DNA of 39,700 bases from Burkholderiales bacterium (lineage in GTDB: Bacteria > Pseudomonadota > Gammaproteobacteria > Burkholderiales > Eutrophovitaceae): assembly GCA_035512195.1 (NCBI GenBank), contig DATKEK010000139.1, positions 1 through 39,700 of the forward strand, read 5' to 3'. This document shows, piece by piece, positions 32,369 through 32,823 of the stretch (position 1 is the stretch's first letter; the number at the start of each line of letters is the position of its first letter). A program made the translations under genes and the position numbers. Under the pieces are notes generated by a model. That model did not search any database and was not told where the DNA came from. It was given only the letters and a program-made list of their open reading frames with translations.

Positions 32369-32397
32369 TTGGTCGCGACGCGGTTTCTCCGTATAAT
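32369..32397 (+). promoter_or_regulatory. sigma70 promoter of the tRNA-Phe locus
   Basis: TTGGTC (32369-32374), 17-nt spacer, perfect TATAAT (32392-32397), followed by a GC-rich discriminator gcgcgg. Confidence 0.6.
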
Positions 32398-32444
32398 GCG
32401 CGGCTTCGCGGGCCGACGTTTCCCGCGATGCCCGCATCAACAGC

Positions 32445-32479
32445 GTCCAAGTAGCTCAGTTGGTAGAGCAGAGGACTGA
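32445..32479 (+). pseudogene. copy of tRNA-Phe positions 1-35 (5' half, ends inside the anticodon)
   Basis: 32447-32479 is 33/33 identical to 32750-32782 of the intact tRNA-Phe. Position 2 is G->T. Identity stops after G34-A35. Confidence 0.9.
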
Positions 32480-32502
32480 CAAGATGCTGCGATAGCAGCC
32501 TC

Positions 32503-32732
32503 TTGCGGCGAAGACTGACCTTTCGCGAAGCGCAAGGTTATGTCGAAGTCACAACACGCCGCCTTGGCGGTTTGTTGCGGCGAAGACTAACCTGCGTAGC
32601 AGGTTAAGGAGCGTAGCTCCGGCCGGAGTCAAAATACGCCATGAGTATGACGTATTTCAGTGAAGGCTAACCTGCGCAGCAGGTTAAGGACCGAAAGGTC
32701 CGGCCGAAGCTAAAATCCGGCACCCCGCCGGA
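32503..32732 (+). repeat. three tandem 72-82 nt structured modules (candidate ncRNA) between the tRNA fragment and tRNA-Phe
   Basis: ttgcggcgaagact is repeated exactly at 32503 and 32575. A 28-nt core at 32583-32610 matches 32663-32690 at 26/28. Each module folds as closing helix plus 2-3 hairpins, with compensatory changes between copies. Confidence 0.8.
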
Positions 32733-32747
32733 GAGCGTTGTAACCGG

Positions 32748-32823
32748 GGCCAAGTAGCTCAGTTGGTAGAGCAGAGGACTGAAAATCCTTGTGTCGGTGG
32801 TTCGATTCCGCCCTTGGCCACCA
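32748..32823 (+). tRNA. tRNA-Phe (anticodon GAA)
   Basis: 76 nt cloverleaf. Acceptor GGCCAAG/CTTGGCC, D arm GCTCAGTTGGTAGAGC, anticodon loop CTGAAAA, T arm GGTGGTTCGATTCCGCC, encoded CCA. Confidence 0.97.

Follow-up and report, generated by a model that had tools for sequence, protein, structure and literature searches.

A tRNA-Phe copy split by a structured repeat family of Betaproteobacteria that may spread as a small integrative cassette

Among described systems, the closest to the locus reported here are the genomic islands and prophages that target tRNA genes, together with their integrase-less remnants (CIMEs), some of them with a crossover in the anticodon loop. These insert in a tRNA gene together with a replacement part, leave an intact gene beside a displaced fragment and accrete into arrays. 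REP/BIME elements, which are mobilised by RAYT Y1 transposases, are a second point of comparison, and a third is provided by the introns of bacterial tRNA genes, all known examples of which, to our knowledge, lie in the anticodon loop.

The features just named for tRNA-targeting islands recur in the DNA studied here, a window of 39,700 nucleotides from a Burkholderiales bacterium (the whole stretch that was analysed), in which an intact tRNA-Phe gene and a displaced fragment form a direct repeat. The initial annotation of the window, made from the sequence alone, had singled out this repeat, and its interpretation is on the whole partly supported by the analysis below, in which the sequence that splits the fragment is assigned to an interspersed family called E.

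Anatomy of the tRNA-Phe locus

The 5′ half of tRNA-Phe is present upstream of the gene as an exact copy of 33 nt at an offset of 303 nt. As the initial annotation had reported, the match is perfect; it extends by 0 nt on either side and has only two copies in the whole window, and an exact 33-mer recurring at this distance cannot have arisen by chance. Because ARAGORN and Rfam provide the coordinates of the tRNA, with the anticodon starting at position 34, the fragment can be equated with tRNA-Phe positions 3-35, ending at A35 in the anticodon loop, which agrees with the G34-A35 end point first proposed. It includes the D arm together with the 5′ strands of the acceptor and anticodon stems; no tRNA model matches it, the only ARAGORN and Rfam RF00005 calls at the locus being the intact gene (Table 1). 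The copy had been described as broken in the anticodon; it is indeed split after A35, but the tRNA sequence picks up again further downstream with AAAATCC, and the upstream copy is interrupted, not truncated. Between the two parts lie three tandem units of 72-80 nt, and the 7 nt of resumed tRNA sequence, past which nothing of the tRNA follows, are separated from the intact gene by a 29-nt spacer.

Table 1. Features of the tRNA-Phe and glmS loci (window coordinates)
Feature	Position	Strand	Evidence
tRNA-Phe promoter TTGGTC-17-TATAAT, then GC-rich discriminator gcgcggcttcgc	32369-32397	+	sequence; conservation in relatives
tRNA-Phe 5′ fragment, positions 3-35, to A35	32447-32479	+	33/33 identical to 32750-32782
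E unit 1, 5′ hairpin CAAGAUGCUGC-GAUA-GCAGCCUCUUG; short core without third helix	32480-32551	+	covariance model, fold
E unit 2, 5′ hairpin and full three-way-junction core	32552-32631	+	covariance model, fold
E unit 3, 5′ hairpin and full three-way-junction core	32632-32711	+	covariance model, fold
AAAATCC, tRNA-Phe A36-A38 and first three nt of anticodon-stem 3′ strand	32712-32718	+	sequence
Spacer, leader of intact tRNA; small hairpin UCCGGC-ACCCC-GCCGGA overlapping the AAAATCC tail	32719-32747	+	sequence
Intact tRNA-Phe(GAA)	32748-32823	+	ARAGORN; Rfam RF00005, 71.6 bits
Fourth, degenerate E copy, ~37 nt past the glmS stop	13958-14027	-	covariance model, 28.9 bits, E-value 5e-7, outside seed
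Decayed glmS 3′-end duplicate, KPRFSAKGVTLER; functional end (12 residues) at 14065-14103	13922-13960	-	sequence

Each unit opens with a 5′ hairpin that varies and continues into a conserved three-way junction, GAAGGCUAAC-hairpin-GUUAAG-hairpin-GGCCGRAG. Units 2 and 3 fit the core of the family exactly (TTYCRGY-GAAGRCTAAC-hairpin-GTTAAG-hairpin-GGCCGRAG-YYA), and their covariance-model scores of 67.9 and 69.8 bits are matches by construction, both being seed members; the fold of unit 3 has z scores of -3.9 as RNA and -5.0 as DNA. Unit 1 is outside the seed alignment and is matched at 32502-32555 with 32.1 bits (E-value 5e-8), folds at -32.8 kcal/mol (z -4.5) and has a short variant of the core that is also found at another tRNA locus, L002. 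The stems of these adjacent units differ in sequence by compensatory changes. The upstream fragment is very probably a copy of tRNA-Phe split by a member of the E family. Two stretches that had been taken for remnants or mimics of the tRNA belong to the units: in unit 1, CCUCU(UG), thought to re-pair with AGAGG of the fragment, forms the 3′ strand of the 5′ hairpin, and in unit 2 the 10-mer ccgccttggc, thought to resemble the T-stem and acceptor, is the 5′ hairpin itself. The proposed tRNA-derived scaffold is not supported, since its sequences are hairpins of a repeat that also occurs at more than 100 non-tRNA loci.

The initial annotation had also placed the only good promoter upstream of the fragment. 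A consensus promoter scan makes no call for TTGGTC-17-TATAAT, whose -35 hexamer agrees at 3/6 positions, but the -10 hexamer and discriminator (TATAATGCGCGSCTTCGC) are kept before tRNA-Phe in five related loci (L014, L015, L026, L177 and L227), and no other upstream promoter was found. The first three of these are empty sites, as the comparison of relatives suggested at the outset had sought, and there the same promoter stands directly before tRNA-Phe; L177 is an occupied site. It is because of this conservation, and not because of the scanner, that the promoter is accepted, and it is, as judged from these relatives, the ancestral promoter of tRNA-Phe. The fragment begins ~43 nt past the putative transcription start (estimated from the -10 hexamer), and the leaders of the empty sites are of similar length.

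The E family, its fold and its target sites

The E core pattern was found in at least 119 stretches, mostly across Betaproteobacteria, and 122 copies give the consensus TT[T/G]C[G/A]G[C/T]-GAAGGCTAAC…GTTAAG…GGCCGRAG-CCA[A/C]AA. One unit spans ~75-90 nt, with the variable 5′ hairpin preceding a junction made of a GGC/GCC stem, in which purines form a 3x3 internal loop (GAA/GRA), and of a second and a third hairpin, with UAAC/GUUA closing the second; the RNAalifold consensus is likewise a three-way junction. Covariation supports this fold: 94.6% of cells pair as against 82.6% in shuffles, changes on both sides affect 105 cells as against 32 (0/500 shuffles reach as high), and slid controls pair at 41% or less. 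Because G·U pairs (38) far exceed A·C pairs (7), one strand of E must be the one that folds. The loops are mostly C(GNA)G triloops, a motif best known as a stable DNA mini-hairpin, and strong hairpins form on either strand. The element begins with (C/A)AA… and ends with …GCCA, with AAAA at the boundaries of the units on either side. Within the window and 18 related loci, Rfam 15 at gathering thresholds returns only tRNA and, elsewhere, one unrelated group II intron, and at E-values up to 10 the tRNA-Phe locus returns only tRNA; E is a widespread family without a counterpart in Rfam 15. A literature search by sequence and by description gave nothing relevant, which does not prove E undescribed. 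Known small ribozymes, the k-turn and sarcin-ricin motifs were compared with E by eye; on one strand the purine loop looks like Kt-7, but position 2b has no A and the alignment shows it pairing as a symmetric 3x3 loop. Type III toxin-antitoxin repeats were set aside for want of a toxin gene, and a CsrA sponge since the GGA motifs are inconsistent.

In a sample drawn without regard to tRNA, 10 E copies at 9 loci directly follow the 5′ part of a tRNA ending in …GA|CAA or …CA|CAA; this concerns Phe(GAA), Ser(UGA), Ser(GGA) and Leu(CAA), and the distance to the intact tRNA downstream is 11-216 nt. A scan with the junction only, using a pattern without any core sequence, returned 76 stretches with 73 new loci, in 53 of which the covariance model detects E, and at ~50 of them an intact tRNA-Phe follows at a median of ~121 nt past the break. 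The break in the anticodon loop is therefore a meaningful boundary, as had been suspected, the …GA|CAA junction being conserved across loci. The tail is exactly AAAATCC in 25 of the 50 related tRNA-Phe loci; in others it is longer and can comprise as much as 23 nt from the 3′ part of the tRNA. Over positions 1-18, 31/50 upstream fragments show no difference from the intact copy, and they follow lineage-specific variants of the acceptor stem. Carriers of the same architecture include Nitrosovibrio tenuis Nv1, an isolate whose array is found around 37.1-37.8 kb of NZ_FOBH01000015, as well as complete chromosomes. Only L002 has the 3′ polarity, with the 3′ half duplicated: one interrupted copy there retains a complete 3′ half, and the displaced 3′ half has a trailer that is found at the sister locus L005. 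A Phe-type E also occurs at CTGA|AAAATCCAG within a xerC/D-like gene (L125), where the 10-mer is the same as in the anticodon loop.

More than 100 further loci have E after the ends or starts of genes, such as nuoD, ftsW/murG and, in the window, glmS (identified by Pfam), for which the same arrangement with intact duplicates of the gene end exists at L168, L186 and L192. Decayed E material is seen in the window both here (core and duplicate) and in unit 1 of the tRNA-Phe array. The upstream flank is repeated directly past the core in 52 of 98 solitary copies, where controls lead one to expect 5%. These flank repeats code for the same peptide, with 85 synonymous against 10 non-synonymous differences. 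The downstream copy, which runs on into the native next gene, resembles the gene body in GC3 (0.73-0.92), whereas the gene-attached copy has a GC3 of 0.43-0.58 (L126, L138, L143, L164); at differing sites the gene-attached copy has AT and the downstream copy GC 58 times, and the reverse holds 23 times (p=1e-4). The displaced copy thus looks native and the gene-attached copy AT-enriched, from which we infer which of the two is the native one. G>A changes (26) are about as common as C>T changes (22) in the recoded copies, in which only a general GC-to-AT shift and no strand-specific deamination signature is seen. Template and variable repeats of the DGR type were rejected as a source of the duplicated gene ends, the differences not being adenine-specific and no reverse transcriptase being found.

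Regarding orientation, 70/96 copies point the same way as the gene upstream of them, and ~40 begin 9-24 nt past its stop codon, a bias that, like the conserved purine loop, is compatible with an RNA function too. About 20% are antisense to both neighbouring genes, including those in nuo operons, and a phage structural operon contains one antisense copy. Among viral contigs, one phage family has a single passenger copy of E, in the structural operon and not beside an integrase; cultured phage records gave no match. Arrays of identical [flank + E] units occur at L174 (3 units of 141 nt), L100, L134 and L191, and in each array E is missing from the last copy. Between E units lie spacers that duplicate 0-100 nt of flanking DNA, and the 5′ hairpin has a 3′ strand able to pair with the flank copy upstream or with the one downstream.

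A putative integrative cassette and its rivals

Taken as a whole, the reading we favour, and consider probable, is that a tRNA-Phe copy was split by E, which spreads as a small integrative or recombinogenic cassette; for the spread of the family in this manner, judged from comparative sequence data, we see the case as evenly balanced. The E units lie between A35 and A36 of the copy nearest the promoter, which would originally have been the native tRNA-Phe; downstream, the functional gene is completed by another 5′ part, itself preceded by a short leader. The native promoter would then give rise to one precursor (leader, 5′ half, three E units, AAAAUCC, spacer and tRNA), from which RNase P would free tRNA-Phe; this co-transcription and processing we infer from the arrangement of the locus. 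More generally, the entry sites of E would be …(G/C)A|AAA, and because a copy arriving with it would replace the gene segment that it interrupts, the target would stay functional, all on a scale of 150-300 bp, in either polarity and without a recombinase of E's own. Of the three origins suggested at the outset, the best fit is an element that recombined in the anticodon loop and left this relic.

A more specific form of this proposal is possible but rather doubtful: E may be a class of ultra-small (~150-300 bp) site-specific integrative cassettes, in which the folded single-stranded three-way junction would be the recombination site, used in trans by a host or phage enzyme, and each lineage would have its own synonymously diverged target terminus (a tRNA half, or the C- or N-terminus of a protein). 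The target would then always survive integration and excision in working form, and its displaced native terminus could still be used. The decay of old copies, the antisense copies and the copy in the phage operon speak for a selfish character. It counts against a cassette that the 26 ORFs scanned in the window include no recombinase, transposase or reverse transcriptase near E, and that none of these is enriched around ~100 copies of the family, whose neighbours are housekeeping operons and families. A further point against it is that the gene-attached copies of L138 and L179 diverge as much as the displaced copies; these look vertically inherited, so that purifying selection on the displaced copy, or reversible excision, would be required. 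Likewise, the many identical tRNA fragments and their lineage tracking would require gene conversion or selection.

The same observations were weighed under other readings. If E were a functional structured RNA, its copies would act as small RNAs, or as leader or 3′-UTR modules of mRNAs and pre-tRNAs (protein-binding, stabilising or translation-sensing), and the tRNA 5′ half with AAAAUCC would be a scaffold or, as in the third of the origins suggested at the outset, possibly a processing handle, in an array kept by host use. The strong covariation, the G·U excess and an invariant junction with purine-loop nucleotides typical of protein-binding RNA motifs would suit such a role, as would the co-orientation and the clustering just past stop codons, the conserved stable-RNA promoter above the array, the persistence of the arrangement in ~50 genomes with a compact ~120 nt spacing and an undecayed 5′ half, and the pairing of the hairpin 3′ strand with either flank copy, which could serve as an alternative-pairing switch. 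We nevertheless judge this reading unlikely, given the copies antisense to both neighbours in nuo operons and in the phage structural operon, the decay of copies, the dominance of C(GNA)G triloops and the lack of a matching Rfam family; moreover, gene-terminus duplicates that are recoded only at synonymous sites would stay unexplained. It is similarly improbable that E has no dedicated mobility and is a hairpin-rich, REP-like sequence duplicated in tandem by slippage or template switching at A-tracts, with the tRNA fragment as a decaying product. The arrays of identical units, the AAAA at both unit boundaries, the strong hairpins on either strand and the fact that no recombinase was found all point in that direction, but slippage should yield identical copies and neutral divergence in the non-functional one, in place of the 85:10 synonymous excess observed, and it is the displaced copy that has host GC3 and the functional copy that is AT-shifted. 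Plain tandem duplication also fails to reproduce arrays whose last copy is without E, and the same junction is used at four tRNA species and at the look-alike 10-mer in a protein gene. A decayed tandem tRNA copy alone, another of the origins first suggested, does not account for a …GA|CAA junction that is invariant at Phe, Ser and Leu tRNAs.

That the units form an intron, self-splicing or protein-assisted, in the tRNA-Phe anticodon loop agrees with their position and with the complete 3′ half of the interrupted copy at L002. At the window locus this is essentially refuted by the missing 3′ exon, the interrupted copy having nothing past position 41 and hence no tRNA to splice; neither group I nor group II introns are matched at E-values up to 10 in the 711 nt around the locus (32250-32960), the units are only 72-80 nt each, and E also occurs in intergenic DNA and antisense to genes, so an intron is very improbable indeed. 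Misassembly, whether as a collapsed or as a duplicated read layout, could in principle produce an exact 33-nt repeat 303 nt apart. This concern, raised at the outset, is dispelled by the recurrence of the same architecture in dozens of independent assemblies, the Nitrosovibrio isolate and complete chromosomes among them.

If the cassette reading is true, E would be, as far as we know, the smallest self-healing integrative element described and a new kind of folded recombination site, and it would point to an activity, recombinase or template-switching, whose target rules (…GA|AAA) are short and definable. Even if E proves to be a functional RNA, it is a widespread structured motif that covaries strongly and has no entry in Rfam 15. 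The family is present in a large share of Betaproteobacteria (nitrifiers, iron oxidisers, Paraburkholderia, Cupriavidus), explains recurrent pseudo-tRNA fragments and duplicated gene ends that confuse annotation and gene calling, and provides natural recombination markers; N. tenuis Nv1 is a cultured carrier that makes E testable.

Comparison with described systems

The likeness of E to tRNA-targeting islands extends to the classical polarity at L002, where the displaced copy has its native trailer. At most tRNA loci, however, including the one in the window, it is the 5′ part that is duplicated, and the initial annotation was right to call this the reverse of classical islands. In contrast to islands, too, the insert of 90-270 nt contains no gene, the ends and starts of protein genes are also used, no integrase lies nearby (among the window ORFs, or enriched near the copies of the family), and what is conserved is a folded three-way junction instead of arm sites. 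REP/BIME elements are, like E, small, non-coding, hairpin-forming and interspersed, with one-strand folding, and are often found just past stop codons and inside operons, in many copies and in arrays. They differ in that E has three hairpins round a conserved junction with stems that vary with compensation among copies, a consensus without a GTAG-type 5′ tetranucleotide, target duplications of 30-100 nt and sites within tRNA anticodon loops; the 39.7 kb window has no RAYT gene.

Integron attC sites with their gene cassettes, and the folded single-stranded attP of CTX phage, share with E the conservation of structure above sequence and the folding of one strand; attC units also form head-to-tail arrays, and the C(GNA)G loops of E would suit single-stranded DNA. 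On the bottom strand, the second hairpin of E is bracketed by GCTTAAC … GTTAGCC, resembling the attC boxes RYYYAAC … GTTRRRY, but only GCTTAAC fits and GTTAGCC breaks the consensus. The bracketed hairpin is ~30 nt (~13-17 nt plus boxes), whereas attC sites span ~57-141 nt with L boxes and extrahelical bases, and the unit boundaries of E lie ~40 nt away, at GCC|AAAA; the window has neither intI nor attI, and the content of the putative cassette is a copy of the terminus of the target gene. Bacterial group I introns are similar in lying inside the anticodon loop, the insertion here following A35; unlike them, E has no group I core, is far too small and occurs outside tRNA genes too, and the interrupted copy has no more than 7 nt of its 3′ exon. 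Finally, MITEs (Correia, ERIC, RUP and similar) are also small, non-autonomous, interspersed and often co-transcribed with their neighbours. E differs from them in having neither the terminal inverted repeats of a parent insertion sequence nor a short fixed target-site duplication; its flank repeats are 30-100 nt long and diverged, with the coding sequence preserved.

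The interrupted tRNA-Phe copy and its promoter

The exact repeat reported upstream of tRNA-Phe in the initial annotation is real. A repeat search of the window finds the 33-mer in two copies only and, given the call of the intact gene, the fragment corresponds to tRNA positions 3-35, ending at A35. The 268 nt past this break are not a random spacer but are organised as three tandem units of a small folded non-coding element, each with a sequence-variable 5′ hairpin followed by the core GAAGRCUAAC-hairpin-GUUAAG-hairpin-GGCCGRAG, and the computed folds of each unit, both as RNA and as DNA, agree with this prediction. 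Since tRNA sequence resumes after the units as AAAATCC (with a 29-nt spacer before the intact gene), the upstream copy is interrupted in the anticodon loop and not merely truncated: an array of a widespread repeat under structural constraint splits this tRNA-Phe copy after A35. The earlier interpretation is supported in part: an element did enter the anticodon loop with unusual polarity, whereas the details of a ‘tRNA-derived scaffold’ find no support; specifically, CCUCU, thought to re-pair with the fragment, is a strand of the 5′ hairpin of unit 1, and the 10-mer ccgccttggc, likened to the T-stem and acceptor strand, is a strand of that of unit 2.

The locus is preceded by a gene for an RNase_T-CBS-DUF294 protein and followed by hemA. 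The relatives of this hemA mark the source as an uncultured betaproteobacterium, the best match having 80% identity at the protein level. The promoter noted ahead of the fragment is present, although a consensus promoter scanner makes no call at this position, because the -35 hexamer agrees at only 3/6 positions; the -10 and the GC-rich discriminator TATAATGCGCGSCTTCGC are kept before tRNA-Phe in relatives. Both empty and occupied sites exist among these relatives. At the empty sites (L014, L015 and L026) tRNA-Phe begins 8-45 nt past the same promoter, with neither fragment nor units, and because it directly precedes tRNA-Phe there, the window promoter is the ancestral one, on which the intact gene downstream of the array depends. 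The fragment begins ~43 nt past the transcription start estimated from the -10 hexamer (unmapped), which resembles the leader lengths of empty sites. Transcription would run through the fragment and the units, with RNase P, the established processing enzyme of pre-tRNAs, freeing the tRNA. Downstream of the tRNA, hemA has its own -10-like TTATAAT (ggccTTATAATc), conserved in L002-L005, and therefore need not rely on the tRNA promoter.

In the occupied locus L177, the same promoter leads through the 5′ half, two units, AAAATCC and a spacer to the tRNA, while in Nitrosovibrio tenuis Nv1 three tandem ~180-nt units (leader, 5′ half, unit and AAAATCCTTGTGTCACG) precede it. In L002 and L005 the interrupted tRNA copies resume and then run through position 53. 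L002 has the opposite polarity, with the interrupted copy downstream of the intact tRNA and the 3′ half duplicated, and its displaced copy bears the trailer found at the sister locus L005. These two contigs (CAWBMN010000008 and CAWBMN010000005) represent different tRNA-Phe/hemA loci, both occupied, within one MAG bin, their hemA being 80% and 79% identical to that of the window; two strains or species may have been mixed in this bin.

Features of the window and of the comparison loci
Feature	Location	Strand	Remarks
Promoter TTGGTC-17-TATAAT	window 32369-32397		upstream of fragment
tRNA-Phe 5′ fragment	window 32447-32479		33/33 identical to 32750-32782, zero extension on either side
Unit 1	window 32480-32551		short variant without last hairpin
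Unit 2	window 32552-32631		5′ hairpin and conserved core
Unit 3	window 32632-32711		5′ hairpin and conserved core
AAAATCC	window 32712-32718		tRNA continuation: A36-38 and first three nt of anticodon-stem 3′ strand
Intact tRNA-Phe(GAA)	window 32748-32823		single tRNA called by ARAGORN and Rfam
-10-like TTATAAT of hemA	window 32900-32912		
Degenerate fourth copy	window 13958-14027	-	covariance model; starts ~37 nt past glmS stop codon
Decayed duplicate, last 12 glmS codons	window 13922-13960	-	follows degenerate copy
Phe-type unit in recombinase gene	L125 1950-2600	-	
Phage-family copy	L201 4400-4700		related viral contigs L203-L206, L209, L210, L212, L213; same sequence in L105, L121
Gene-terminus duplicates	L164; L126; L114, L141, L169; L168, L192		ivd; argF; nuoD start; glmS, respectively

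Distribution and predicted fold of the element

A family scan with the core pattern alone, requiring no tRNA sequence, matched at least 119 stretches, mostly across Betaproteobacteria, the genera among the matches listed including Paraburkholderia, Cupriavidus, Methylophilus, Caldimonas, Thiobacillus, Sulfuritalea, Gallionella and Nitrosovibrio. The consensus of 122 copies among the matches listed is TT[T/G]C[G/A]G[C/T]-GAAGGCTAAC…GTTAAG…GGCCGRAG-CCA[A/C]AA. Contigs with the betaproteobacterial tRNA-Phe/element arrangement also occur in bins of unrelated phyla (L148, L238 and L239, labelled Streptomycetaceae; L275, Blastocatellia; L224, Rhodospirillaceae), which probably reflects mis-binning rather than the true distribution.

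RNAalifold predicted a three-way junction from a MAFFT alignment of 53 cores, and the pair counts support this prediction: 94.6% of cells pair versus 82.6% in shuffles, both-sided changes are seen in 105 cells versus 32 (attained by 0/500 shuffles), and pairing in slid controls is at most 41%. G·U pairs greatly exceed A·C pairs (38 versus 7), and therefore one strand of the element folds. Its hairpin loops are chiefly C(GNA)G triloops, a type familiar above all as a stable mini-hairpin of DNA, and the strand that folds could accordingly be ssDNA as well as RNA. A covariance model made from the same alignment recovers unit 1 (E=5e-8). No family of Rfam 15 matches the element, and no matching description was found in the literature searched.

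Insertion sites and duplicated flanks

The sample collected without reference to tRNA genes includes 10 copies, at 9 loci, that lie directly 3′ of a tRNA 5′ part ending …GA|CAA or …CA|CAA, in Phe(GAA), Ser(UGA), Ser(GGA) or Leu(CAA), with an intact tRNA 11-216 nt downstream each time and always the same polarity. A scan for the Phe junction (GTAGAGCAGNGGAYTGACAA, a pattern free of core sequence) found 76 stretches, and the covariance model detected the core in 53/73 new loci; the fragment boundary, whose lack of conservation had been named as evidence for plain tandem decay, is thus conserved. In about 50 of these loci an intact tRNA-Phe follows the break (median distance ~121 nt), and in 25/50 the tail that closes the array is AAAATCC exactly. 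Over positions 1-18, fragment and intact gene are identical in 31/50, and the fragment follows lineage-specific acceptor-stem variants, unlike the 20-nt leaders, which are mostly unrelated. A xerC/D-like recombinase gene in L125 is interrupted near its 3′ end by a Phe-type unit, at CTGA|AAAATCCAG, a 10-mer shared with the tRNA-Phe anticodon loop; tandem copies of the local flank surround the unit, the last one intact, and a 66-nt local segment is triplicated.

Outside tRNA genes, the element is found next to housekeeping operons (nuo, mur/fts, argF-argG, ivd, acs and glmS). No recombinase family is enriched around the ~100 copies compared, and none occurs among the 26 ORFs scanned in the window. 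In 52/98 solitary copies (control expectation 5%) a second copy of the upstream flank comes immediately after the core. This downstream flank copy begins at +0 to +2 with (CC)AAAA, and its start recurs in inverted form as the 3′ strand of the 5′ hairpin. Where the repeats are gene termini, both copies encode the same peptide, and the downstream copy leads straight into the native next gene. Terminus duplicates with synonymous divergence flank the element in L164, L126, L138/L179/L098, L143 and L192; there, GC3 of the gene-attached copy is far below that of the gene body, and the displaced copy is host-like in GC3.

Older copies decay, as exemplified by the core and duplicate at glmS of the window. 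The glmS 3′ end is also occupied in L168, L186 and L192; it is in this region that Tn7 has its attachment site. The overlap of the ftsW stop and murG start is split by the element in L096, L154, L170 and L195 (Paraburkholderia) and in L086 (Cupriavidus), with the junction duplicated, both genes intact and the arrangement conserved across several species. In one high-GC phage/prophage family, a single antisense copy is present within the structural operon, where it separates a small ORF from a putative tail gene; the gene start (MAYF…) is duplicated.

Origin of the duplicates and relation to known systems

Plain target-site duplication or replication slippage could also have made the copies, but fits less well: either would give identical copies, followed by free drift of the non-functional one, whereas in clear cases the terminus copies differ by 85 synonymous versus 10 non-synonymous changes, the displaced copy looks native and the gene-attached copy is AT-shifted. 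Specifically, the downstream copy has the GC3 of the gene body (0.73-0.92), the gene-attached copy one of 0.43-0.58 (L126, L138, L143 and L164), and differing sites are AT in the attached and GC in the downstream copy 58 times, versus 23 times the reverse (p=1e-4). The substitution spectrum is a general GC-to-AT shift with no strand specificity. A live rival is an RNA function, under which the element could be a stabiliser or a translation-sensing switch that acts via alternative pairings of the 5′ hairpin. The element is co-oriented with the upstream gene in 70/96 cases, ~40 of these 70 having a stop codon 9-24 nt before it, and ~20% of copies run antisense to the genes on both sides.

The reading preferred here is that the element spreads as a tiny cassette, which would enter at …(G/C)A|AAA accompanied by a replacement copy of the segment that it interrupts. 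Some loci (L098, L138 and L179), in which both copies still code, have the look of vertical inheritance and would require reversible excision or repeated re-invasion; with reversible excision, the displaced end would remain under selection. Gene conversion or selection is needed to explain why the tRNA fragment is identical to its intact partner.

Such an entry would have the topology of the Campbell-type integration of tRNA-targeting islands; unlike these islands, the element is found in both polarities and lacks its own recombinase gene. It belongs to an apparently undescribed family which, while falling outside the definition of each, comes closest to REP-like repeats and integrative cassettes/CIMEs.
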